Shown: positions 1,820-50,498, counted from the stretch's first letter. The stretch: 64,000 nt of DNA from Patescibacteria group bacterium (GCA_041666325.1 JBAYHC010000001.1:201708-265707); one strand, 5' to 3'. Translations and numbers: made by a program. Notes: generated by a model from the letters alone, not told the origin.

Positions 1820-2176
1820 CTACTTGTTCTTTCTATAGCTAATAAATGCAGAGATCTGACTTGCTACTTGCTCAAGTTTGGTGCTTAGTTCAATGTACTG
1901 TGATTGAGAACAGTATCCTAATTCTTTGGCTAAAACTAGTAATGTATCCAACTCATTGCAAGACCCCAGTGAGATATAGAGAAATTGTATCAGCTCTTTA
2001 TTTCCATTCCTGCCATATCCTTCGGCTATGTTTACCGGAATAGAAACCACCGCTCTATTTATTTGAGAAGCCAAACCATATATCTCTGAATGAGGAAATT
2101 GTCTGGTAATTTTGTAGCACAAGAGAACAAGGCCAATGCCTTCTTGCCATATTTTTAGATCTTTGTATCCCCTCAT
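1820..2176 (-). CDS. Four-helix-bundle protein (TIGR02436, 23S rRNA intervening-sequence protein family)
   Basis: About 118 aa with KIWQEGIGLVLLCYKIT...IAEGYGR...LYISLGSCNELDTLL, characteristic of this family. Confidence 0.6.
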   Translation of the reverse strand: MRGYKDLKIWQEGIGLVLLCYKITRQFPHSEIYGLASQINRAVVSIPVNIAEGYGRNGNKELIQFLYISLGSCNELDTLLVLAKELGYCSQSQYIELSTKLEQVASQISAFISYRKNK

Positions 2177-2227
2177 TTCTCACTGCTCTTTCCTTTCTAC
2201 CTTCTCCCCTCTCCCTTCCACCTTCTA

Positions 2228-3901
2228 CTATTTAAGCTGTAGTACCGCTCCCTCCCCCTCATGCTCATCGAGAGGTTTTTCTTTAAGAATAGGCAGCGAG
2301 AAGAAAAATTCCGTTCCCTTGCCCTCACCCTCACTCTCAAACCAAATCTTGCCTTTGTGTAGTTCGATTAGATTTTTGGAAATATACATACCAAGCCCAG
2401 TACCCTTGACTTGGTCCTTCAAAACATCAACCTGAGAGAATTTCTGAAAAATTCGATCGCGCTTCTCCTTGGGCACTCCGCAGCCGTTGTCCTTGACTGA
2501 CACGACAATATTGTCGCCTTCTTTCCAGGCCCGAACTTTAATTTTGCCACCCGGATCAGTGTATTTGATAGAGTTGCCCAGCATATTGATAACAACCTCG
2601 GTGATTCTGGTCTTGTCAAACCAGGTCTTGGGCAGGGCATCTTCGGACTTGTCATAAACCAATGTGTGCCGCATCTCCTTCACCTTAGACCCAACCTCCA
2701 TTACAGCCTGGTTGATGATATCCTCCATCTGCGACTCCTCGTAAATAAGATGAACTCTGTTCGACTCTATCCTGGAGACATTGAGCAGATCTCGCACAAG
2801 TGAGGCCAGTCTTTTGGACGAAGTATAGACACTGTCAAGATATTTCTTGGCTTGATCCGGAATCTTGCCGCCCATGCCCTCATCCAAAATCATAGAAAGA
2901 TAACCCTCGATAGCAGCTATTGGAGTATTGAGCTCGTGCGATGCCATCGACATAAAGTTGTCCTTGGCCTTGTCCAAATCCTGCAAATGTTTATTAGCCT
3001 CATCGAGCCTTTTAGCTAATTTTGAAATGTCTTCCTTCTGTTTTATCTCACGCTGGACGCTCCTAACTAGCTGATACCCACTGTAGCTTGCGGTAAACCA
3101 TATGAAAAAATTGATTGCTCCCTCAGTCATGCTCTCCGATATTACCATCCGAACCAGCAGAGCGAGAGATAACACGATAACAATCGCCTCCGTCGCAATC
3201 ACTTTAATGTCAAACAGGTGATGCTTCGTGATTGCATAAGCAGTAAACCCAAGCATGAAAACAACAGAGTAGTCCCCCAGCCAATAATAGTTATCGCCAG
3301 GTCTGAAAACCGGCCAAATCACGTTGAAAATTGTGTTAAAAAATGCCACTGCAATCACACCGTACGAAAATAATCTTATTTGCGATTTTTCGTTCAAGCT
3401 AGCCAACTTGTATGATTTGACTAAGCGCCATATGACTAACAATGCGGTTATCACCGCGTAAGCATAGAAGATTAGTTCATATTCACCCATGGTCCAAACT
3501 AATAGGCTATTAGACAAATTCATATCTGCAACAATAAGATTTGTTGCGGCAGATACAATAGCAAACGACACACCGACAGAAACAAAAAGCAGATCGACAG
3601 TTCTCCATCTTGCTTGGTTTTTCGGGAAATTAAGAATAAACGCATAAATTGAAACCAGGAATAAGGCAACGGAGGCAAAATTTAGCCTAGCTAACAACAG
3701 AGAAAACCGGGATAGGCTCGGGTAATATACCAAAAAACCGAGACTGGCCCAAAGCAAAACCGCCAATGACGTTAGAAAGAAATAACGATTTTGAGGCTGA
3801 CGCTTATTTGTGTGGTAAACAGCAAAGCCAAGCAACAATGAGGCTAAAGCAACAGCCGCAAGCACAAACTCCTGAATCAGTTTTATGTCAATTTTTTCCA
3901 T
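2228..3901 (-). CDS. Sensor histidine kinase with a multi-pass membrane sensor domain plus HisKA/HATPase_c
   Basis: About 7 N-terminal hydrophobic helices; H-box MSMASHELNTPIAAIEGY; N/G boxes NMLGNSIKYT, DNGCGVP, GTGLGMYISKNLIELHKG. The start was moved to the internal MEKIDIK to avoid overlap with the upstream gene. Confidence 0.8.
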   Translation of the reverse strand: MEKIDIKLIQEFVLAAVALASLLLGFAVYHTNKRQPQNRYFFLTSLAVLLWASLGFLVYYPSLSRFSLLLARLNFASVALFLVSIYAFILNFPKNQARWRTVDLLFVSVGVSFAIVSAATNLIVADMNLSNSLLVWTMGEYELIFYAYAVITALLVIWRLVKSYKLASLNEKSQIRLFSYGVIAVAFFNTIFNVIWPVFRPGDNYYWLGDYSVVFMLGFTAYAITKHHLFDIKVIATEAIVIVLSLALLVRMVISESMTEGAINFFIWFTASYSGYQLVRSVQREIKQKEDISKLAKRLDEANKHLQDLDKAKDNFMSMASHELNTPIAAIEGYLSMILDEGMGGKIPDQAKKYLDSVYTSSKRLASLVRDLLNVSRIESNRVHLIYEESQMEDIINQAVMEVGSKVKEMRHTLVYDKSEDALPKTWFDKTRITEVVINMLGNSIKYTDPGGKIKVRAWKEGDNIVVSVKDNGCGVPKEKRDRIFQKFSQVDVLKDQVKGTGLGMYISKNLIELHKGKIWFESEGEGKGTEFFFSLPILKEKPLDEHEGEGAVLQLK

Positions 3902-39688: not shown

Positions 39689-39885
39689 GTGGAGGACTTT
39701 GTTAAAATTATTGAACACTTTCTTTGGGAAACCTGTGGGAACGTTTGTATATATTCACTAATTCGATAACTTCTTGAGGTATAATTACTGCCAAAAGAGA
39801 CCGATTAATTTTAGTTTGCCTGTTTGGCCCGTTGAGACCTAGTGAATAGAGGAACTTTTTTGATTCGAAAATTAGGCACACATAC

Positions 39886-40221
39886 TCAGACACCCTTCCA
39901 GGTTGAAGTGTGGTTGTAGCTATTTTTAACATAAGGCAAAAGTTTAATCACGCTATCGGTATCAAATGGGATTTTTATCTTAAAGCCAATGGTTTTGTTG
40001 CCGATAATCTCCGGACCTGCTTGCCAATCTTGTTCTAGAATTTTTCGGTCTTCCGGAGTGACACGGGAAAGAATGAGAAAGTCGCCGTCAATCGAGGCAA
40101 ATTCACGGCCATTCACATAATATCTGGTCCGGCTCAGTTGCTTCTTCCGGGTTACACCTGGCCAGCGATACACTTCATTTTCAAAAATCCGCTGAGCTTT
40201 TATTGTCATGGTGTGCACCAT
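39886..40221 (-). CDS. Hypothetical protein
   Basis: An ORF of 111 aa with a plausible coding composition; no family recognised. Confidence 0.4.
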   Translation of the reverse strand: MVHTMTIKAQRIFENEVYRWPGVTRKKQLSRTRYYVNGREFASIDGDFLILSRVTPEDRKILEQDWQAGPEIIGNKTIGFKIKIPFDTDSVIKLLPYVKNSYNHTSTWKGV

Positions 40222-40337
40222 ACATAGCTATTTCAAGACAATTCTATCACAGCTACATCTGGTTGTATAAAACAGCAGGAGATGATGACCTTCGGGACAA
40301 TTTGATTGGGTGGGAACGCCGAAATACATTCGTATTT

Positions 40338-40380
40338 CCACCAAAAAATGACCTCAAATTTTGAAGTCATTTTTTGGTGG
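40338..40380. repeat. 43-nt near-perfect palindrome (ccaccaaaaaatgac...gtcattttttggtgg) downstream of the OLD-family gene
   Basis: The 15-bp arms are exact reverse complements and the central spacer is itself palindromic. Confidence 0.6.
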
Positions 40381-40587
40381 ACACGGGCGATAATTTTTGG
40401 AACACTTTCTTCGAAAAGATTTTTGAATGGGCTCCGCTGTTGCGCCAGATTAACCACACACAGAATATCCCAATTCTGGCCAGATAATCAGCCACCAGAT
40501 GCAAATAGAACACAGTATAGATATATTTAGCTTATCTAGATACGATCCCAAAGTTGTTGCCAATCTTCTCTGAAGGTATCAGCTCTA

Positions 40588-42582
40588 TCAATCTTTGAGC
40601 ACGTATTTCAAAATTTCTCTAATCGGTTTTTTGATTCCCCTGGCAGAGTTTAATGATTTCACTATCCCTATCGCAAATTCCACTTTATCGGTAACCGAAC
40701 CGCCCCCAGAAAAGCAATTTTCCAAACAGCCATTTTCTAGAACAAAAATCATTTCCTGTTCTCTAAGATTTTTAAGGAGGTTTTTAATATTGGCAGATAA
40801 GATAATTCTTTTTCTGATAGAAATTGCCCTGGTTTTGATAATTTTATCTGTAAGAGAATCAACTGCTTTTAGAAAATCTTCTTTTGGAAGCTCTTTTTTG
40901 GTTTTAATTAGATTAAACAAGCTAGCTCCGTCATAACTTCTAATCAGAACGTCCTTTAGTTTGGTAGTATTAAGACTATACAAATTATCGATCTCAGTAG
41001 ATATTGAGCTAAGTTCGGTCTTAATCTGATCGGATTGCAACAATGACCTTTCTTTTGATAAGTCCTTTAAAATATCAAGGTCTGCCACGATGTAGTTTTT
41101 AATTTTCCAGGTGTTCAGGAACTTTCTATACTTTAAAAGGTTATTTTTGCTTCCAACTGGCAATACCTCAATGACCTCATCGGATCGATGAACTCCTCTA
41201 AGCAATGAAAGCGACTTGGAAAATACCAGCTGGTCAGAGATGCCCTCCACGAGGATGACCTTATCAGCAAAGAAAACTTTTTCGTTGTTCGAAGAATTAA
41301 TTATTTGCAGAAGGTCTTTTACTGATGAACTATCGAGTAGTGACTTATTCGGCTTCAGAATCTTGCTACAATCATTATGTTTGTATATACGATATGTTGA
41401 CTGAATAATCGGCGGTACGATGATCTGAGGTGAATGAGTAATAATCAAGAATTGCAAATTGTACGTAACTGAAAGCTCTTGTATTAAATCTGTCAGCACC
41501 TTTTGCCACTGTGTGTGTTGGTGCAGCTCTGGCTCGTCTAGCAAAACCAAACCGTCTTTCAGTTCTGAAAGAACAATCCCCGAGATTAAACTAAAAAATT
41601 CTTTCTCGCCAGAACTCAATTTGATCGGCATTCCATTTAGGCGAAAGAATCGTAAACGATATTCGTGATGATAAATAATTTTTTGATCGATTACCTCGAA
41701 AGACATTGAGAGGTATCTCTCTAGCACTTTTCTGAATGCAGTCAAAATTTTACTGTTTTTATTTTGGTCATACAATCTAACGATGTGCTGGTAACTAGTA
41801 TCAACTATGCCGATATAAGTATCCTTGGACTGGTTTAGACCTTTTGCAAAATTCTTGTCAATATTGTTCTGTGTTAAATCAACAACGATTTCTTTCTGAA
41901 CCTGATTTACGTTTCGGTGGGGACCTATGTATCTAAAATTTGGAGCAATTTTAATATTGCTTGAGAGAGCCGATATCTCGTACAAAACATTAAAGTATGG
42001 AAGAATTTCAAAAAACCGTTGAACAATTTCCGACAACTCTGGCTTGTCAGAATAAGCGCCAATAATTGAGTTGCTAGCTATCACAATTTTTAAAGTAGTT
42101 CCAATCAAAGATTCAAAGACATCATCGTAAAAAAATCTCTCGATACTGTTGGCCACCTGTCCCGAATCTTGGAAATCCTTTTTAAGAAATAAAACTAAGT
42201 CTTCCTTAAATTTCGCAATTTCTTTCAAAATATTGATGTCTTCTTCCTTAATTGAAAAATATAGTTCCAGCGATGACTCTTCGGAGGTATGAGAGTAGTG
42301 CCTTTCAAACATCTCTGCAATTAGGTTGGGATCCCAATTATCAAACTGTAGCTTATAATGATAACCATAGTTAGCTGAGTTCGGGTTGGCCCGTTCTGTG
42401 TTATAAGTGATCGTAACGTGCTTATAGATTACTGAAGAAATCGCCCCTTGTATTAATTCAAACAGATTGCTCTTACCTCCACCGTTTGGTCCAACGAAAA
42501 CGTTGAGTCCGTCTCCAAAAAGTACCTCTTCGGCTGGATAGTAGCTTTTCAGGTTTTTGACAATCGCCCTATTTAGTTTCAT
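40588..42582 (-). CDS. OLD-family nuclease: N-terminal ABC-type ATPase (AAA_21-like) fused to a C-terminal Toprim domain
   Basis: Walker A GPNGGGKSNLFE, Walker B LVLLDEPELHQH, H-loop ITHSP; Toprim motifs ILVEGISDQ and VADLD. Confidence 0.75.
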   Translation of the reverse strand: MKLNRAIVKNLKSYYPAEEVLFGDGLNVFVGPNGGGKSNLFELIQGAISSVIYKHVTITYNTERANPNSANYGYHYKLQFDNWDPNLIAEMFERHYSHTSEESSLELYFSIKEEDINILKEIAKFKEDLVLFLKKDFQDSGQVANSIERFFYDDVFESLIGTTLKIVIASNSIIGAYSDKPELSEIVQRFFEILPYFNVLYEISALSSNIKIAPNFRYIGPHRNVNQVQKEIVVDLTQNNIDKNFAKGLNQSKDTYIGIVDTSYQHIVRLYDQNKNSKILTAFRKVLERYLSMSFEVIDQKIIYHHEYRLRFFRLNGMPIKLSSGEKEFFSLISGIVLSELKDGLVLLDEPELHQHTQWQKVLTDLIQELSVTYNLQFLIITHSPQIIVPPIIQSTYRIYKHNDCSKILKPNKSLLDSSSVKDLLQIINSSNNEKVFFADKVILVEGISDQLVFSKSLSLLRGVHRSDEVIEVLPVGSKNNLLKYRKFLNTWKIKNYIVADLDILKDLSKERSLLQSDQIKTELSSISTEIDNLYSLNTTKLKDVLIRSYDGASLFNLIKTKKELPKEDFLKAVDSLTDKIIKTRAISIRKRIILSANIKNLLKNLREQEMIFVLENGCLENCFSGGGSVTDKVEFAIGIVKSLNSARGIKKPIREILKYVLKD

Positions 42583-42599
42583 TATTTCTCTCAGAATGA

Positions 42600-43442
42600 T
42601 TAATGGACGTAGATTTCTTTGCTTTTTATTCTATCTTTTAGATTTACTCTCTCAACGACACTTCTCAACAGTTGCTCGCTATGGGAATATACAAATCGGT
42701 CACAATTTAAGGCAACGTTATCGTTGATATGGCGACAATGTCTTCTGTCTGCTTTGTAAAAGGCAACATCCTTTCCCTCATCAAACATAGCAAGATAGAA
42801 ACTCTTTGAAAGCGGAATTGCTTTCACGGCACCTTTTGTAATAACGCCAACCCCACGATAAGGGCTGTTTTCAACGGGCGAAAACAAGACAAATGGATTA
42901 TCTGAAGTAATGTATGCACTGCTTTGAGGAGCAAAAATAATTCTCCAGCTCATATGCGCAAAATACGAAGCCATTTCAGCGCTGATCTCTAGTAAAAGCT
43001 TTATTTCATATTCTCTGCTCTGTTCAACCTTCACTTCAAGCCTATTGCCACCAGGCCTCTCAAACATTTGAGCCAATTTGGTTAATGCCGCTTCAGATAG
43101 TTCTTTGGTATGCTTTGAAAAATAAGGGACACGGTTCTTTTGCAAGGCGACGAAAAACGATAATTGTGCTTTTTCTTTTTCGCTCAGTGACTCACTCTTT
43201 TCGATTTTGCCGATGACGGCACTGGCGTCACCCTCAATTTCTGAAAACTTTTTCTCTAGATCATAGTGATACTTGCCATCTTCCCCAAGATAGCGATAGT
43301 AATTTGAAATAACAGCTGTGTCCTTAATGCCCAAGTGCTTATATTCATTTGTGGTCCTATCATAAACCCAAATATACCCATCTGTTGCAAAACGAGATAG
43401 GACCATTTGCGGTAAGAAATGATGTCTTTTTGGTTCACCCAT
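42600..43442 (-). CDS. DUF4238-family protein
   Basis: About 280 aa with an N-terminal HHFLPQ motif typical of DUF4238 (HHY[IV]PQ); lies 17 nt upstream of the OLD-family gene on the same strand. Confidence 0.55.
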   Translation of the reverse strand: MGEPKRHHFLPQMVLSRFATDGYIWVYDRTTNEYKHLGIKDTAVISNYYRYLGEDGKYHYDLEKKFSEIEGDASAVIGKIEKSESLSEKEKAQLSFFVALQKNRVPYFSKHTKELSEAALTKLAQMFERPGGNRLEVKVEQSREYEIKLLLEISAEMASYFAHMSWRIIFAPQSSAYITSDNPFVLFSPVENSPYRGVGVITKGAVKAIPLSKSFYLAMFDEGKDVAFYKADRRHCRHINDNVALNCDRFVYSHSEQLLRSVVERVNLKDRIKSKEIYVH

Positions 43443-43524
43443 AGGTTAATTCAGCAACAAGGAACGAAATAAGCGCTTACTCTAATTTGGTTTTTGTATT
43501 ACTAAGCATTCCGATTGCTAGCCG

Positions 43525-44112
43525 CTACTCATACAGCTTTAATCTAATGGAGTCAATTTTCCTCAGTAGGTCGTGTTGAGTCGAAACCATTTGCTGAATT
43601 TGAAGCTCTGTATATCTAGCCCTTCTGTTTTTGAAGGGATCATTTGTGACAGCCATCTTGTATTTCAGGAAGCAATTTTCAAGATTATCATCGAAGCAAA
43701 AATCTTCAATAATTTTCGCTTCTGTGAATTTTTTTATATCGTTAAGCTGATGCATTGCGCAGTTGAAATCGTAGTCAACTCGCCCTGCTTTTTGATCTGA
43801 CGGGTTGCTGGTGTAATCATTCGCTGAATTCAAAGTTTTTTCAATTGCACTGCGAAAATCTGCCAAGAATCCCAAAACAATTTCTTTTTTCTTGGAACTA
43901 TCACTTACACTCTCACTTATATAGTGGGTCACAAACAAGGCGACAATAATCGTTACAAGCAGATTAAGCAAGTTGGAAAAAGAAAAATCCCAGAACTTAT
44001 CTGGCAAAATATTCCATCGAAGCACAAGAGCAGAAATGACAAAGCCAATAACAAAAAAGATAAAGGAAAGCGATATTCGAGCCGAATTTTTCCTGATTAT
44101 CCTTTTCATCAA
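43525..44112 (-). CDS. Hypothetical protein with two N-terminal TM helices
   Basis: TM helices ISLSFIFFVIGFVISALVL and LLNLLVTIIVALFVTHYI; its start overlaps the stop of the upstream STAS-like gene. Confidence 0.45.
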   Translation of the reverse strand: MMKRIIRKNSARISLSFIFFVIGFVISALVLRWNILPDKFWDFSFSNLLNLLVTIIVALFVTHYISESVSDSSKKKEIVLGFLADFRSAIEKTLNSANDYTSNPSDQKAGRVDYDFNCAMHQLNDIKKFTEAKIIEDFCFDDNLENCFLKYKMAVTNDPFKNRRARYTELQIQQMVSTQHDLLRKIDSIRLKLYE

Positions 44113-44414
44113 GCATTCTCTATATAACTTTCTATCTCGCGTTTTAGAATCGAATTTGTTGTGATTAAATTTATTCTGTTCTGCACTGCATTCTTGTCTT
44201 TAATCACCCTGACAAGGCCGCCGAAGGCCTCCTCGAAGAAGGAAGTCGGGTATCCTGCTAAGCCATCCAGATATACGTTGATAATTTCGTTTGATTTTGT
44301 TTGGAATAATGGCTCGAGAAATTTTTCTCTGAATTCCTCACCAGAAAAATCACTCTTTTGCTTAAATCTTCCACCAGGAGAAATCGTAAAATCTTTAATG
44401 AAGACGTTTTTCAT
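44109..44414 (-). CDS. DUF4325 (STAS-like, anti-sigma-factor-antagonist-like) protein
   Basis: About 100 aa with VYLDGLAGYPTSFFEEAFGGLV resembling the STAS-like DUF4325 core; lies directly downstream of a GHKL ATPase. Confidence 0.5.
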   Translation of the reverse strand: MKNVFIKDFTISPGGRFKQKSDFSGEEFREKFLEPLFQTKSNEIINVYLDGLAGYPTSFFEEAFGGLVRVIKDKNAVQNRINLITTNSILKREIESYIENA

Positions 44415-44430
44415 TTCAAAATTCCTAAAA

Positions 44431-45441
44431 TTAAAGTTGAAAATCCCACGAAAACAAAGTTCCTCGAAAGCCTTCTTTTATAGAGATGTGTTGGCTAAAG
44501 TGCACAGCACTAATAAAACCACGATTGGATACTATTTTCAAATTATCTATTTTCTTTCTATTCGAAATCTCATATATTTGGGGCAGCCCCTTACCTCTAT
44601 TTTTTTGTTTGGTTCTAGATCTCTTGAATTTTCCCTCAAGCGCGGATCTAATTAAGTCGGCGTCAGATCTAATAAGATATTTGAGTACAATTTCAGCAAA
44701 GTTCTTTCTCACGGTTGTCGGAATCCCTTGTCCATTATCCAGGAACGCAAAACTTATCTTGCGAATATCTGCGTTGTAATATGCAGCGGTCCACCATTTG
44801 GGAAGCGGCGAATCAGATAGATACGCGTGCTCGTTGGTGTTATTCATTAGTTCAACAAGCGTTTCATATATTCCTTCCGTGGACCTCTTGGGACCATTCA
44901 TTTTGCTTGCAACAAATTCAACAACCTTTAAGACAACGGCGCCCTGTGTCCTCTCGCCTGATTGTATTGAAAAGATATCATCATTCATTCGAGGGGGATC
45001 CCCTCTTACGAGTTTGACGAATTTATAGAATCCGGAATCACGGAATATCATCCTGCATTTTTCCTCTCGCGGCTCATTCCCCTGAATGCTAGGGGCCACC
45101 CGTTTAGTGCCGAAAAACTCGAGGAGAGACAGGAGATACAGGATTGCGTCAAGGGTAATTTCACTCACAACCGAAAGATCAAGAAAAACAGAATAGCCCT
45201 TGTTGACGTTATTCTCAATTCTTCCACAAAATTCCAGAAAATGTTGGTGATCATTCAAGATACTGAAAACAGAAGGGGCGATAACTCTCTTGAAAATTCG
45301 AGATAGTTTAGTTGCTTTAATAAGTCCACGCTTCTTGCGCTTTCTTATTAAGTTCTTTTTAGCGATTATCCTAGATCGCTTCTTCCATTTTTCGGTGACC
45401 TTTTTCATTTGGTATAATAGTATCAAACGAGGGCTAGTCAT
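44431..45441 (-). CDS. GHKL (HATPase_c) ATPase with a basic N-terminal extension
   Basis: N-box ELMNNTNEHA, G1 DNGQGIP, G2 GKGLPQI. Confidence 0.65.
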   Translation of the reverse strand: MTSPRLILLYQMKKVTEKWKKRSRIIAKKNLIRKRKKRGLIKATKLSRIFKRVIAPSVFSILNDHQHFLEFCGRIENNVNKGYSVFLDLSVVSEITLDAILYLLSLLEFFGTKRVAPSIQGNEPREEKCRMIFRDSGFYKFVKLVRGDPPRMNDDIFSIQSGERTQGAVVLKVVEFVASKMNGPKRSTEGIYETLVELMNNTNEHAYLSDSPLPKWWTAAYYNADIRKISFAFLDNGQGIPTTVRKNFAEIVLKYLIRSDADLIRSALEGKFKRSRTKQKNRGKGLPQIYEISNRKKIDNLKIVSNRGFISAVHFSQHISIKEGFRGTLFSWDFQL

Positions 45442-45469
45442 ACTACCTAACTAACCCATTTGTCTTCTT

Positions 45470-46000
45470 ATGCAATGCCAATTTGAAAAATCAGACGGTA
45501 AGCAGTGTGGGGGCTACTCAGTGAGCAGCAGCCATTTTTGCTTTTCGCACGATCCAAAAAGCAAGAAAAAGCACTTGAGGGCAGCTAAGAAGGGTGGATT
45601 GGCTTTGAAGAGTAATAGTACTGTTTTAGCGGAAGAAATTGATCTAAGTTCGTCTGAAGGGCTAGAGAACGTACTAAAAGATACGCTTAGCAGAGTAAGA
45701 CGCGTAAACCCTGATGGCTCAATCGAATTAAAAGCGGCTTATTGTATAACCCTCATTGTGTCAAAACTTCAAGAAATACATCTGAAAAGCTACCCAGAAG
45801 ACAGGCTTAAGGAAATTGAACGCAGAGAATTTGAACTAAGGGAGCAAGAGCGCGCAAGAGAAGCATCACACCAGAGACATAGTCGGCTTTGGGAAGAAAA
45901 CCCAGAAAAAGCAGCCGAAGAGATAATGGTTCACACTAACCTGCTGCTGAAACGCGCGTTAAGAGACCGTGAGTCAAGAAAACTCGGTATGAATATATAA
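45470..46000 (+). CDS. Hypothetical protein: N-terminal Cys/His cluster and charged coiled-coil C-terminus
   Basis: CQFEKSDGKQCGGYSVSSSHFCFSHD and an ERREFELREQERAREA-type charged segment. Confidence 0.4.
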   Translation: MQCQFEKSDGKQCGGYSVSSSHFCFSHDPKSKKKHLRAAKKGGLALKSNSTVLAEEIDLSSSEGLENVLKDTLSRVRRVNPDGSIELKAAYCITLIVSKLQEIHLKSYPEDRLKEIERREFELREQERAREASHQRHSRLWEENPEKAAEEIMVHTNLLLKRALRDRESRKLGMNI

Positions 46001-46004
46001 ACCT

Positions 46005-46607
46005 TTAATCCAATTCCTGAATAGCACTCTTTAGGGCTTCCGCGTTTACTGATTTGATGCCCTCCCTCATCAAAGCTTTCAATGAAATGCTTTTCTTGTT
46101 TTTGATAAGCTCGATTAGCCTATCCTTTGTGAAGACGAAAAATTCCCATTGAGTGAGATCTAAGGGGTTAGCCGTATCGTGGGAGTCTGCCGAGAAGTAA
46201 CAAATAACGAATAAATCCGCATTAAAGCTTGGCGTCTCTTCCATAATCCCCGTCAATGGGTTCCATTTACGGGTTGGAGATAGAGCTACTTTAGGCTCAG
46301 ATAACCGCTTTTGAGCCCACGCCTGGAGTTGAGACATTGTTTTGATTTCAATGGTTTTGCCCTCTTTTGTTTTGAGATCGTACGCATCCCAAGGGATTCT
46401 TGGTTTATCATCACAACCCAAAAGAACAGCCACAACATATTCAGCAAGCACTGCTCTCGTAGTGTTTTGCATTAAGTCAGAGTACGCCCATTGCCAAAAA
46501 TCAACGATAGTTCGGTTTAAGCAATTGCTTGTTTCGTTATTATAAAAAGCAGAACCACATTCCAGTTTAGAGACTGGCTTTGGGGTCAGTAAAAGATCTT
46601 TATTCAT
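46005..46607 (-). CDS. PD-(D/E)xK nuclease-fold-like protein, hypothetical
   Basis: Candidate motif WDAYDL...(x11)...IEIKT, i.e. D...ExK; otherwise unrecognised. Confidence 0.45.
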   Translation of the reverse strand: MNKDLLLTPKPVSKLECGSAFYNNETSNCLNRTIVDFWQWAYSDLMQNTTRAVLAEYVVAVLLGCDDKPRIPWDAYDLKTKEGKTIEIKTMSQLQAWAQKRLSEPKVALSPTRKWNPLTGIMEETPSFNADLFVICYFSADSHDTANPLDLTQWEFFVFTKDRLIELIKNKKSISLKALMREGIKSVNAEALKSAIQELD

Positions 46608-46917
46608 TTTTTCCTTGGTCGGATTTGTTTTGTGGCAGAGAGCAAAAAGCCCGCCGCCACTAGCAGCCCCGTAGGGCTACACGTACATCTTTCGATGCAC
46701 GACCGACCAAGGTCCGTGACGACGAGCTCACTACCTTGGTCGGAATTTTCCACCGTGCTCACTATTATCTAATGAGGTTAGGTGGTTTCTCGGTTGTGTT
46801 AACGACAGGAATTATAAAATTCCCTTATGCTTAATATAGCAGAAATTAGTCATTCCCTCAACCTTATCCACAGATATCAGTTTGAATATATTTATACATT
46901 AATGTATAAATTAAATA

Positions 46918-47682
46918 ATGGAAAAAGAAGGCACTGAAAAATTTAGCGATTTATGTAAGAAAAAATACTCGGCCAAAGAGGTTGGCATCTCTTATAGAAT
47001 TTTAAGCAGCTGGAGCTCTCTTGGCCTAATCAACCACCTGAGAGACAAAGAAAATGATTGGCATCGTTTTTCGGCTTTTGATCTGATTGAGATAAGAGTA
47101 TATGACGAGCTTCGGCAGGTTGGCTTTTCTGTGGAGAAGCTCTTAAAAATCAAGAAATTTTTACGCGCACAGTCAGTTCTAGCCATATTTTTCTCTGATT
47201 CGAATTTATCAAAAGAGTACGTCGAGGACCTTGGCAAGTCTACAATATTAGTTGAATCAATCTTGAGAACTGCAGCAGGAGAAAACATTTTTCTTGTTAT
47301 TGATAAAGATGCAGCAAATCCTATGTTTGCAGAAGAAACGATCGTGTATGAATTATTAGCGCAAGCGAATTCTATTTATAATGAGTATGGTGGCAACTAT
47401 TTGGTTCTGAGTGTCCGAACAATTCTTGAGAATGTTAGTGTACCATACGAAAAATCTAATCATAAGCTCGGAAAAGTGCTGACAGCAATTCTTGATTCCG
47501 AAGAACAATCAGAGATTAAACTTTTCGTTCAAGACTGTGAATTAAAGAAAGCAAAGCATACTCTATATGATGTTCCCCTTGGTACGAATATTACAGCTCT
47601 TATAAAACAACCCAACAGAAAAACTTCATTCAGCTCCAACAATAACGGTTCCGTCAAAATGAAAATTGAAGCTGAACTATAA
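46918..47682 (+). CDS. MerR-family HTH protein (possible excisionase or regulator of the element)
   Basis: YSAKEVGISYRILSSW...FSAFDLIEIRVYDELRQVGFSVEKLLKI resembles a MerR HTH; located upstream of the recombinase. Confidence 0.5.
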   Translation: MEKEGTEKFSDLCKKKYSAKEVGISYRILSSWSSLGLINHLRDKENDWHRFSAFDLIEIRVYDELRQVGFSVEKLLKIKKFLRAQSVLAIFFSDSNLSKEYVEDLGKSTILVESILRTAAGENIFLVIDKDAANPMFAEETIVYELLAQANSIYNEYGGNYLVLSVRTILENVSVPYEKSNHKLGKVLTAILDSEEQSEIKLFVQDCELKKAKHTLYDVPLGTNITALIKQPNRKTSFSSNNNGSVKMKIEAEL

Positions 47683-47761
47683 AAACTAGAATCCCTAGTT
47701 TCTTTTACCAACAGTTCAAGTAGCAGCGATCCTACTACGCGATCGAATCTGGTATGAGAAA

Positions 47762-47902
47762 ATGTTATCAATCGACGAGTGTAGAGATTATTTAAAAGAA
47801 TATAATTTAAGCGACGAAGAGATCGAAAGAATGAGGAACAATCTGCAAGGAATAGTTGAAAGTGTACTCGATTCCTATATCGAAGGATTCAAAAATGATT
47901 AA
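47762..47902 (+). CDS. Possible small acidic helical ORF (46 aa) overlapping the recombinase start
   Basis: MLSIDECRDYLKEYNLSDEEIERMRNNLQGIVESVLDSYIEGFKND; found by hand and not in the ORF track; weak support. Confidence 0.25.
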   Translation: MLSIDECRDYLKEYNLSDEEIERMRNNLQGIVESVLDSYIEGFKND

Positions 47903-49487
47903 CGATACAAACAAGGCACTAATTTATTGTCGGGTTTCTTCCCCGCGCCAGATTAAGGAGGGTCACGGCTTAGAAAACCAAGAACACAGGTGTAGACAGT
48001 ACGCAGTGGAGAAGAAGCTCAAAGTTGTCGAGGTATTCTCTGAAGACGAGAGCGCTAGCGGTGGCCTTTTTGACCGTCCTGCAATGAAAGAACTGCTCAA
48101 TTTTCTTGACAGGAATCAGTCAGAAAGATACTTCGTAATATTCGATGATCTAAAACGTTTTGCGAGAGATGTAGAGGTTCATTTTAGACTAAAGACTGAA
48201 TTGGTTAAACTGCGTGCAGTAAAGCTACGCTGTCTCAATTTTAATTTCGACGACAGCCCTGAAGGCAGGTTCGTTGAAACTATGTTTGCAGCCTGTGCTC
48301 AGCTCGAAAGAGAACAAAATAAGAGGCAGGTAATACAAAAACAAAAAGCACGACTGGAAAATGGCTACTGGACTTTTTATCCGCCAGCTGGCTATGAGTA
48401 TAAAAAATCGAGGGTGCACGGCAAGCTTCTATACCAAGTGCATCCATTGGCAGAAACGTTAGGCAAGGTCATCGAAGACTTCGCGACGAATCGTCTAATT
48501 GGGAAGGTAGACGTCGTCAGAAGGCTTGTAGAACTAGGTATTCTAAAAGAAAGTGCACCAGAAACAACTAATTTTAATTTTGTTAGAAGATTGCTAAGTA
48601 ATCCCATCTATGCGGGATTCATTGAATATAAACCTTGGCAAGTTCCAATAAGGAAAGGCCATCACAAGGCAGTTATTACCGAGGAAGTACACAGATTAGC
48701 TTTAAATAAAATGGAGAAACCTGAAAGAATGCCAAGGAATACTGATTCTTTGGAATGGCCATTAAGGAGACTGGTCGATTGCTCCATTTGTGGTAAACAA
48801 TACACCGGGAGTGCAAACCGAAGTAAGAATCCCGACAAACACTATCCGCATTATACGTGTAATAATAAATATTGCACTGCTAGTCCTAAAAACATCACTA
48901 AAGAAATCGTAGAGGAAAAATTCCTTAAACTTCTCAAGTCAATCGGGGCAGACAAACCTGTATTGGATTTGGCGAGGGCAATGATACTTCAGATGTGGAA
49001 GGAAAAGGAAAAAAATTTCAATACAAAGAAATCAAATGGTCTTAAGAGGATCGGGCAGATTGATGTAGAAATTGAGAGCTTTTTAAGCAGAATTCCGAAG
49101 GCAAAATCAGAGTCACTAGTTGCACTATATGAATCAAAAATTGACAAACTCGAGAATGAGAAAAAAGAAATTGAAAAAAGCTTGAAAAACAAAAAAGAAC
49201 CCAACCTAAACGAAGCAATAGATTTGGTTCTTAATTTCCTTGGAACACCCGCTGAATTCTGGAAATATGCAGACCTAGAAAGAAAAATATTAATTCATAG
49301 CCTGATTTTCATTAAAAACCCAGAATTCTCTCTAGAAACAGGTTTTGGAACACCTAATTTGTCTCTACCATTCTACATAAAGCACTATGTAATGGACCAG
49401 GATGATACGTTGGTGGAGGTGGAGGGAGTTGCACCCTCGTCCAAGAGGTTAAAAACTGCCTATTGTAGCAAGCTTAGCTCCGGTTGA
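47895..49487 (+). CDS. Large serine recombinase (resolvase domain, recombinase domain and zinc ribbon)
   Basis: Catalytic ALIYCRVSSPRQ; a recombinase-domain region; a C-terminal CSICGK...CNNKYC zinc ribbon. The start is set at the ATG preceded by aagga. Confidence 0.85.
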   Translation: MINDTNKALIYCRVSSPRQIKEGHGLENQEHRCRQYAVEKKLKVVEVFSEDESASGGLFDRPAMKELLNFLDRNQSERYFVIFDDLKRFARDVEVHFRLKTELVKLRAVKLRCLNFNFDDSPEGRFVETMFAACAQLEREQNKRQVIQKQKARLENGYWTFYPPAGYEYKKSRVHGKLLYQVHPLAETLGKVIEDFATNRLIGKVDVVRRLVELGILKESAPETTNFNFVRRLLSNPIYAGFIEYKPWQVPIRKGHHKAVITEEVHRLALNKMEKPERMPRNTDSLEWPLRRLVDCSICGKQYTGSANRSKNPDKHYPHYTCNNKYCTASPKNITKEIVEEKFLKLLKSIGADKPVLDLARAMILQMWKEKEKNFNTKKSNGLKRIGQIDVEIESFLSRIPKAKSESLVALYESKIDKLENEKKEIEKSLKNKKEPNLNEAIDLVLNFLGTPAEFWKYADLERKILIHSLIFIKNPEFSLETGFGTPNLSLPFYIKHYVMDQDDTLVEVEGVAPSSKRLKTAYCSKLSSG

Positions 49488-49959
49488 TTTATTCGAACAG
49501 GAGATAAGACCGGAACGGAAATCTACTGCTCTATCTCGAGTATATCTTAGGGCTTCACGCTAGAGAATCGATTGCCCGCAACTCGAAGTATGACACTCAT
49601 ACCCTCTAGTCGAGTAGCTAGAGGATGAGCGGTTGCCGTTATTTAAGCAGCAACTGGCGCAAGAGCAAAGCCGCTAAAAGCTGCTTTAACTCTGCTAACA
49701 AGTGAGTTTGCACTTGAGATTTTCCGGCAATTAAGGCTGCCAAGATCACCTGCTTGCTAGATCAGTTTTTAAAGTTCCTATTGTCGAAGCTAATACACCC
49801 CCGAACACATCTTATTATACCTAATATTGACAAAAAATCAACTTGCTCGACTCCGATTCTTGCAGTGGTCAAACCAAAACTAGACAATGTCGTTTCGAAA
49901 TGGTATAAATCTGTGGGCAGCAGAATACCTACTATTCTGCTGGATGAAGGAGAGACAAA

Positions 49960-50442
49960 GTGGGAAAAAGACAGACATATGGCAATCTTCCGCCAGATGC
50001 ACGCTTTAAGTCGCCCGAAGAGCGCCGCCGATTTGCAGAAGATCAGGTTGAGACTTTGGTTGCATTGGGACTTTCTGATCACCATGCTCGCCGCATTCTC
50101 CGCGGTGCCGGCCCCAGCGAAGCAGTTATGGTGGGCCGGTGGATTATAGATATCCAAACAAAGATTGATGGAGGCAGGGTCAGCGCTAGCGCACTGCGAT
50201 CCAATCTTACCCTGTTCTTGAGCAGCGATGATTGTGATGATGTTCTTGGCAATATCTGTTTGCTTGGCATAGAAGCCCCCTGCTGCCATCCAAACGCAGC
50301 ATATCGATATGTCCGCGCCCTCCGGGCATACATGGATTCCGAGTACAATGTTACCGAGGCAGTTCAAGATCACCGAATGCGATCACAGTCACGACGCCAA
50401 CCCTGGGGCACTTATGTTCCAGACCGTAGCCCGTGGTTGTAG
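49960..50442 (+). CDS. Hypothetical protein on a locally GC-richer (about 50%) segment
   Basis: The ORF is followed immediately by a strong intrinsic terminator. Overlapping opposite-strand ORFs also exist, as expected for a GC-rich stretch. Confidence 0.35.
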   Translation: MGKRQTYGNLPPDARFKSPEERRRFAEDQVETLVALGLSDHHARRILRGAGPSEAVMVGRWIIDIQTKIDGGRVSASALRSNLTLFLSSDDCDDVLGNICLLGIEAPCCHPNAAYRYVRALRAYMDSEYNVTEAVQDHRMRSQSRRQPWGTYVPDRSPWL

Positions 50443-50458
50443 GCGCCATTTTGTCCCA

Positions 50459-50486
50459 GAGTGGGTTTCCCCCACTCGTTTTTTTT
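50459..50486 (+). terminator. Intrinsic terminator (gagtgggtttcccccactc followed by T8)
   Basis: Seen in the sequence. Confidence 0.7.
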
Positions 50487-50498
50487 ACAGATGACCGC

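Follow-up and report, generated by a model that had tools for sequence, protein, structure and literature searches.

Tyrosine integrases of SSV1-type archaeal viruses have their attachment site, attP, within the integrase gene (int) itself, and integration into a tRNA gene partitions that gene while excision restores it. The closest known system to the locus described here, judged by published layout and description rather than by sequence alignment, is the family of Dehalococcoides islands at ssrA, the gene for transfer-messenger RNA (tmRNA). In these islands the gene for the large serine recombinase DsiB always overlaps the attachment (att) site or ssrA, its stop codon lies outside the island, and the authors speculated that only the circular form might contain the complete gene (McMurdie et al. 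2011, PMC3146451). Prochlorococcus tycheposons are small cargo elements at tRNA/tmRNA genes, and a large serine recombinase is counted in 27 of 937 elements, tycheposons and cryptic elements taken together (bioRxiv 10.1101/2020.12.28.424599). Serine integrases are, according to the Islander paper, not known to target tRNA and tmRNA genes (tDNAs), and serine recombinases at tRNA genes are on record for one Paracoccus phage and a few tycheposon-type elements. Here we describe a locus in a stretch of 64,000 nucleotides (nt) from a Patescibacteria group bacterium (GCA_041666325.1, JBAYHC010000001.1:201708-265707; hereafter the window, with positions counted from its first letter), where a defence element of ~9 kb has probably inserted itself at the very 3′ terminus of the host's tmRNA gene, splitting the element's own recombinase gene. 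Our literature search found no account of such elements in Patescibacteria, nor of a conserved detached recombinase tail.

The right end of the island carries the recombinase gene in its integrated form (Table 1). An earlier note on the window, generated by a model from the sequence alone, had recognized a large serine recombinase, and profile searches bear this out: the resolvase domain with its R-x-S motif (PF00239, E 7.4e-26, residues 21-170; motif YCRVSSPRQ) is joined by a zinc ribbon (PF13408, 26.6 bits against a cut-off of 25.3) and by a Recombinase domain that falls marginally below its threshold (PF07508, 20.5 against 21.1 bits), the combination that defines large serine recombinases. 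Catalytic residues R14, S16, R89, and R92 are conserved in an alignment of homologs (A1), in which R14, V15, S16, and S17 occupy near-invariant columns and the cysteine columns C297, C300, C323, and C328 are invariant. The recombinase open reading frame (ORF) ends at 49487, giving a 77-nt antisense overlap with the 3′ end of the tmRNA gene, so that its last 23 codons are antisense tmRNA sequence and encode the tail VEGVAPSSKRLKTAYCSKLSSG. The tmRNA gene itself is intact. It scores 93.7 bits over the full RF00023 model, has a promoter-like site at 49841-49814, and encodes a tag predicted by ARAGORN as ANSLVSRVKAAFSGFALAPVAA; its acceptor stem, with a G3-U pair, still pairs beside the island. 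The sequence TTG GTG GA complements TCCACCA, the end of the tmRNA, together with one further base, and copies of this core, TTGGTGGA, bound the island on the left (40374-40381) and on the right (49410-49417). An intact tRNA or tmRNA gene abutting the integrase end is one part of the signature used by Islander. Its other part, a displaced tDNA 3′ fragment repeated at the far end, was not found in the 64 kb: the 8-bp core alone is repeated, and it is the detached recombinase tail that defines the far end. No longer match to the tmRNA end stood out in the 64 kb, where the best candidate matched at 15 of 24 positions and the sole better match to the fragment query was tRNA-Pro itself.

A detached segment encoding a recombinase C terminus lies at the opposite end of the island. 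We built a profile from the C-terminal tails of 8 database recombinases, excluding the window, and searched all six frames of the window. This returned a single match at 40374-40454 (E 2.8e-12), followed by a runner-up at E 2.1. The encoded peptide, LVDTGDNFWNTFFEKIFEWAPLLRQINHTQNIPILAR, resembles the true C terminus of the recombinase homolog P0008, LVDLDLEIWNTFCEIALEWEPKLRQVYDQLESDQV, as well as a segment 8.4 kb upstream of the P0008 recombinase on the same contig; in tblastn searches the window tail matched the P0008 tail at E 2e-4 and positions 1601-1687 of locus L188 at E 2.5e-6. Fourteen such tails align without gaps over 26 columns (alignment A4), with V2, W9, N10, and W19 invariant. 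Comparing 8 genomic tail segments pair by pair gave nucleotide identities of 0.45 at the first codon position, 0.58 at the second, and 0.39 at the third, a pattern that indicates coding constraint on the tail. Over all loci, the profile produced 21 matches besides that in the window, distributed over 17 related loci and L189. All share the strand of the recombinase, and all are situated to its left apart from the copies at P-P′ junctions in L188 and L189, the latter being a second contig of the L188 element; there, the tail is the recombinase's own C terminus. Tail segments of the related loci shown open with the same core, in which GTGGA is invariant. Among the top 120 database homologs, 9 end in the W-N...W tail and ~89 in tails antisense to a tDNA. 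A second candidate for a recombinase remnant in the window, at 46519-46602 (E 0.037), was rejected, as it runs antisense to the N-terminal part of a complete ORF and lacks colinearity with the other match.

A hairpin and a T-run stand directly before the core in the loci inspected, the window included. In the window they form part of the palindrome at 40337-40381, which is probably host DNA, namely the B arm of attL and the original terminator of the tmRNA gene, a role we infer for it. The closest structural analog of the island is L046, which has the same module of MerR-like gene, small ORF, and recombinase. Its 21-nt repeat stops at TGGTGGA|CA, the same point as in the window, and its left arm, compared ungapped in a single preset register, is identical to the window's at 26 of 51 positions, a level reached at 16 of 127,898 window positions. 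Other comparisons were less telling. The identity step between L184 and L186 across the junction does not locate the crossover because the hosts are too diverged, and nothing above chance resembled a symmetric P′ arm at the left end. A 10-mer, TGGCGGGAGT, common to the tmRNA T-arm and to sites upstream in L182 and L184 was discarded, given ~0.3 occurrences per locus expected by chance.

We propose that the element has its attachment site within the reading frame of its recombinase, at TTG GTG GA, so that insertion would split the recombinase gene. In the free circle, the gene would read ...DDT-LVD-TGDNFWNTF... through the core into a W-N...W tail of ~30 aa, giving a product of 543 aa. Were the element to recombine with the 3′ end of the tmRNA gene inside the shared 8-bp core, the tmRNA gene would stay intact, the tail codons would be displaced by 9 kb to the island's left end (40374-40487), and the integrated ORF would run antisense into the tmRNA gene and gain an unrelated 23-aa tail. 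Excision would fuse the tail in frame and rebuild the full 543-aa gene. The predicted junction of the empty site is GAAGTCATTTT-TTGGTGGA-GGTGGAGGGAGTTGC (string TTGAAGTCATTTTTTGGTGGAGGTGGAGGGAGTTGCACC), and that of the circle is GATGATACG-TTGGTGGA-CACGGGCGATAA (string GGATGATACGTTGGTGGACACGGGCGATAATTTTTGG). Judging from the enzyme family, the reaction would use a serine nucleophile, a 2-bp staggered cut, and subunit rotation. The anatomy of the two ends, the homology of the detached tail, and the recurrence of the junction across the family are observed directly; as hypotheses that build on them, the element may still be mobile, and the exchange of tails may alter the activity or directionality of the recombinase.

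Several results weigh against an insertion that splits the recombinase gene. Neither an empty site in a related genome nor a junction from the circle turned up, and the comparison with island-free relatives that the earlier note had recommended yielded nothing but a further occurrence of this island, in a second sample (L162). Searches for exact copies of the recombinase returned the source contig only, a metagenome scan with RsmH gave hits at ≤56% identity and no tmRNA synteny, and homologs of the NadM-like protein, other than the one beside the same island in L162, were ~50% identical and nonsyntenic. The predicted attP and attB junction strings were absent from IMG/VR. Furthermore, an 8-bp common core would not be significant by itself, both forms of the recombinase are known as sequences alone, and in five loci that are more distant, a longer tDNA repeat ending in the T-loop lies 137 to 570 nt outside the tail segment.

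The most serious rival explanation is that the island entered by the same route and is now a fixed, immobile relic whose recombinase is idle or repurposed. The missing empty site and circle would fit such a relic, as would the occurrence of the same island in two independent samples (ERZ27249449 and SRR6484324) and the absence of transfer genes from the island. On the other hand, the catalytic residues are conserved, the 46-aa ORF upstream of the recombinase and all other parts of the module are intact, the two cores are identical, and the 37-codon tail is free of stops and retains every invariant residue. We regard a relic as unlikely. Alternatively, the crossover could have taken place in the tmRNA T-loop, as in Dehalococcoides (PMC3146451), with later deletion of the 20-nt displaced fragment, in which case the tail segment would be an internal feature of the island. 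The five distant loci speak for this scenario, since they have repeats of 15 to 20 nt that end in the T-loop (within L032, 5782-5980; L034, 4753-4996 and 5622-5831; L038, 2662-2895; L043, 5442-5674; L073, 599-1256). We nonetheless consider a T-loop crossover very improbable in the window, where no tmRNA-like fragment was found and the tail starts exactly at the core; moreover, the attP-form recombinases of L188 and L189 have nothing beyond TTGGTGGAC in common with the tDNA and lack T-arm sequence. A GC-rich stub separates the tail segment from the T-loop repeat in all five distant loci, and the outer repeat may belong to the stub of an older element or mark a different boundary in that clade. 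Finally, tandem arrays do exist (L188 and L034), and yet we give almost no credence to the tail being a remnant of an older tandem element's recombinase instead of this element's left arm, since recombinase homology ends exactly at the core, a hairpin and not recombinase coding sequence lies upstream, and the same arrangement recurs in 17 loci.

Set against the known systems, the split recombinase gene at the tmRNA end has its nearest counterpart in the DsiB islands. Both have a large serine recombinase of ~540 aa at the island end next to ssrA, with a 3′ overlap of ~70 bp (77 nt here) and a stop codon beyond the island, and DsiB islands, like those of the family described here, are small, resemble integrative and mobilizable elements (IMEs), and can occur in tandem arrays. 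In contrast, DsiB islands have a 20-bp ssrA repeat and insert in the T-loop, whereas the window island has an 8-bp core at the CCA end. They also carry DsiA, a small serine recombinase in addition to DsiB, and a module of ParB, Mom, and RecF; the window island has a 46-aa ORF instead, and among its ORFs Pfam detected neither another one with a Resolvase domain nor any domain of the ParB, Mom, or RecF type. Host phylum and cargo differ as well, and a conserved in-frame tail at the far end is undescribed for Dehalococcoides. SSV1-type integrases share the attachment site within the integrase ORF and the splitting of the gene on integration. They differ in being tyrosine recombinases of archaeal viruses, and their split removes a large part of the enzyme rather than the ~34 C-terminal codons concerned here. 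Tycheposons mostly use tyrosine recombinases, and the passages covered report no split recombinase gene; their serine recombinases are likened to ours by target type, not by sequence. Domain order is the same in the large serine recombinases XisF, CcrB, and CcrC, which target protein-coding genes or orfX rather than tDNA. XisF and CcrB are the best curated matches of the window recombinase (NCBIfam E 1.5e-25 and 1.3e-15), which remains far below the equivalog cut-offs of both (90 against 375 bits and 57 against 900 bits, respectively). For Dehalococcoides, the split-gene layout offers a sequence-level explanation of an observation left open in 2011.

The recombinase belongs to a family with more than 1,000 homologs, mostly in metagenome-assembled genomes of Patescibacteria, a phylum whose mobile elements are poorly known. 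Identity to the window recombinase is 41 to 53% among Patescibacteria relatives and 36 to 41% in Alphaproteobacteria and other groups, while phage and plasmid relatives reach ≤29% and IMG/VR holds only 3 family members. The C termini of homologs in alignment A1 resemble translated tRNA ends, for example, LVE..G[VFL][AE]P. We surveyed 80 loci from a scan of representative genomes, and in 62 of them an antisense tRNA (47 loci) or tmRNA gene (15 loci) starts in or beside the 3′ end of the recombinase gene. The tRNA targets are those for Ala (30), Thr (6), Met (3), Leu (3), Tyr (2), Ser (2), and Lys (1). Most remaining loci are at contig ends or still have a tDNA-like tail. Codon phase relative to the discriminator base was the same in 58 of 63 junctions, against a chance expectation of one third. 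This family targets tRNA/tmRNA genes almost without exception, contrary to the usual view of serine integrases. Relatives that could be delimited by core and tail, as in the window, have island sizes of 3.3 to 10.7 kb, and other small ones carry type III restriction-modification systems or a SMODS-like nucleotidyltransferase. The tail profile maps the far end of an island to the nucleotide where there is no long direct repeat, and repeat-based finders would miss such islands. Short att sites combined with a universally conserved target may also interest those prospecting for integrases.

Elements of conjugative type were encountered among the Patescibacteria relatives. The closest homologs of the recombinase (50 to 54% identity, mostly also at tmRNA genes) terminate blocks resembling integrative and conjugative elements (ICEs), with a TrwB/VirD4-like coupling protein, TrbC/VirB2 pilin, TrbL, PrgI, a VirB4-like ATPase, and an M23 peptidase. 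Such blocks lie ~8 kb upstream of the recombinase in L004, L011, L012, L013, L019, L025, and L182 to L185, at tmRNA or tRNA-Ala genes, and in L182 a bAvd-like gene and a reverse transcriptase (2090-3595), similar to a cassette of a diversity-generating retroelement, stand beside the block. In L006 (11511-13799) and L020 (11494-13058), the element occupies the tRNA-Ala gene of a 16S/tRNA-Ile/tRNA-Ala ribosomal spacer. Recombinases with a W-N...W tail are followed, after every P-P′ junction examined, by a minus-strand HTH_3 gene and a PLDc_2 nuclease gene (L188, 11603-12600; L190, 3567-4586; and the P0073 contig), an arrangement consistent with P-P′ junctions in tandem arrays or circles. The contigs of L004, L009, L013, L016, L017, L019, L187, and others break within ~50 nt of the junction between recombinase and tDNA or inside the element, which is the pattern expected of insertions that are polymorphic in the sampled population. 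The recombinase genes of L015, L019, L020, and L025 have a frameshift near the 3′ end or in mid-gene and are likely decaying copies or assembly errors.

The two alternative C termini led us to a broader, tentative idea, which we hold to be possible and rather less likely than its opposite: that the exchange of C termini on integration is a built-in switch of recombinase activity or directionality, common to a large unrecognized family. With such a switch, the W-N...W tail would be made from the circle only and the antisense-tDNA tail from the integrated form, and the effect might be strengthened by the 46-aa protein or by overlap with the antisense tmRNA, which is abundant. The family concerned would comprise tRNA/tmRNA-targeting elements of Patescibacteria, from 3-kb defence islets to ICEs bearing type IV secretion systems, together with alphaproteobacterial relatives. 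The split-gene layout also suggests, in concrete terms, a way in which a serine integrase might register whether it is integrated.

The earlier note had placed a gene with a MerR-like helix-turn-helix (HTH) ahead of the recombinase. The HTH scores below the cut-off (MerR_1, 19.8 bits against 21.6), and the conserved partner of the recombinase is not this gene but the 46-aa ORF between the two. In a profile search, 47 of 78 loci had this ORF immediately upstream of the recombinase, among them almost every locus of the Patescibacteria type, and a JGI gene call exists for it (P0137). A longer ORF containing a related motif is found in alphaproteobacterial loci. The 46-aa protein had no match in family libraries, including NCBIfam and PHROG, and its only homolog in the protein database was itself; we hypothesize that it is a candidate accessory or directionality factor. 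Among the fetched loci, a homolog of the MerR-like protein was found only in L046, in the same position relative to the recombinase and with 32% identity. The palindrome ATTTATACATT|AATGTATAAAT upstream of the MerR-like gene is a candidate operator for it, a function suggested by its position.

Composition sets the island apart from its surroundings and supports its description as a compositionally foreign integrative island of ~9 kb that carries cargo of defence type and is bordered on one side by its large serine recombinase. GC content is 0.386 within 40382-49410 and 0.451 in the remainder of the window, and the lowest value among 148 other 9-kb windows is 0.423. The fall in GC that the earlier note placed at ~39.9 to 49.5 kb was measured between about 39.6 and 49.5 kb (0.32 to 0.41); outside it, GC is 0.44 to 0.53, and the flanks are at about 0.45 to 0.53 and not at the 40% claimed for them. 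All 13 lowest-GC 2-kb windows of the 64 kb fall within 39.5 to 49.5 kb. The k-mer composition, proposed as a check, was likewise not uniform, with a tetranucleotide L1 distance of 0.266 between island and rest and a maximum of 0.149 for other 9-kb windows. The AT-rich integrative island of the earlier note is therefore real, and its limits of 39700-50490 (~10.8 kb) overshoot: the cores give 40374/40382 to 49417, or 9.04 kb core to core. On the right, the excess takes in the host tmRNA gene and a segment at 49960-50442 with a GC of 0.53. On the left, it includes a 111-aa ORF at 39886-40221, directly outside the core, whose GC at third codon positions is host-like (0.46), consistent with a place outside the island. 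The flanking genes were named correctly: to the left of the island lie ahcY (AdoHcyase) and a nadM-like gene (CTP_transf_like), and to its right rsmH (Methyltransf_5) and queH. Overlooked were the LOOT RNA, the detached recombinase tail, the 46-aa ORF, and the tmRNA gene, and with the latter the target of integration and the proposed position of the attachment site in the recombinase frame. Pfam detected no type IV secretion or coupling-protein genes among the island ORFs, and without conjugation-type transfer genes the island is best described as IME-like. Neither Pfam nor PHROG matched capsid, tail, terminase, or lysis genes in the island, which gives it none of the marks of a prophage.

Table 1. 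Features of the island and its junctions, in window coordinates
Feature	Position	Strand	Evidence or remark
Palindrome, 22+1+22 nt (A-tract, hairpin, T-tract), ending in left core	40337-40381	.	Inverted repeat, 95% complementarity
attL common core TTGGTGGA	40374-40381	+	Identical to 49410-49417; first 8 nt of tail frame
Detached recombinase 3′ end, 37 codons + TAA, encoding LVDTGDNFWNTFFEKIFEWAPLLRQINHTQNIPILAR	40374-40487	+	Tail profile, tblastn, alignment A4
OLD-family ATPase-TOPRIM nuclease, 664 aa	40588-42582	-	AAA_15 E 5e-21, OLD-like_TOPRIM E 4e-15, PADLOC Old E 1e-26
DUF4238 protein, 280 aa	42600-43442	-	PF14022 E 1.4e-44
195-aa ORF, hydrophobic N terminus	43525-44112	-	No family match
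STAS-like DUF4325 protein, 101 aa	44109-44414	-	PF14213 E 8e-11; phrog_5816 E 6e-11
GHKL-ATPase-like protein, 336 aa, partner of DUF4325 gene	44431-45441	-	phrog_3364 E 1e-42; HATPase_c E 0.15
176-aa ORF	45470-46000	+	No match, including Pfam, NCBIfam, PHROG
200-aa ORF	46005-46607	-	Weak precomputed PF26887 match only
LOOT RNA (RF03000)	46662-46784	-	71.5 bits against gathering score 46.4, E 1.7e-13
Perfect 22-bp palindrome ATTTATACATT|AATGTATAAAT	46890-46911	.	6 nt before MerR-like ORF
254-aa protein, weak MerR-type HTH at residues 19-75	46918-47682	+	MerR_1 E 8.7e-4, below cut-off
Conserved 46-aa ORF, stop overlapping recombinase start	47762-47902	+	Profile in related loci
Large serine recombinase, integrated form, 531 aa	47892-49487	+	Pfam, NCBIfam; alternative TTG start 47856
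attR common core TTGGTGGA	49410-49417	+	Last 7 nt of tmRNA gene + 1 nt
tmRNA gene ssrA, host integration target, intact	49411-49802	-	ARAGORN, Rfam RF00023

The cargo had been called defence-like and placed entirely on the minus strand, from which the 176-aa ORF departs. OLD nucleases are an established defence family, and both they and DUF4238 are among the families with experimental support for an antiphage role, a class to which the other cargo genes are not assigned. A DUF4238 protein gave strong T7 resistance (preprint 10.1101/2021.01.21.427644). These two calls and that of DUF4325/STAS in the earlier note held up. Its GHKL call for the 336-aa protein has behind it the HATPase_c match and three motifs (N-box, G1, and G2) recognized on visual inspection of the translation, and a PDB sequence search with this ORF gave no match. 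The pair of GHKL-like and DUF4325 proteins is met again in phage protein families. The DUF4325 ORF aligns to the C-terminal part of the 441-position profile phrog_5816, from which the pair appears to be fused in some phage proteins. A PD-(D/E)xK assignment for the 200-aa ORF found no backing: this ORF had no Pfam, NCBIfam, PHROG, or PDB match in our searches, and its weak precomputed match is to T4 endonuclease IV. The LOOT RNA was considered as a component of the element and rejected, being absent from 10 related loci. It lies upstream of the 200-aa ORF, with a promoter-like site (46861-46833) preceding it and a hairpin resembling a terminator at 46667-46653.

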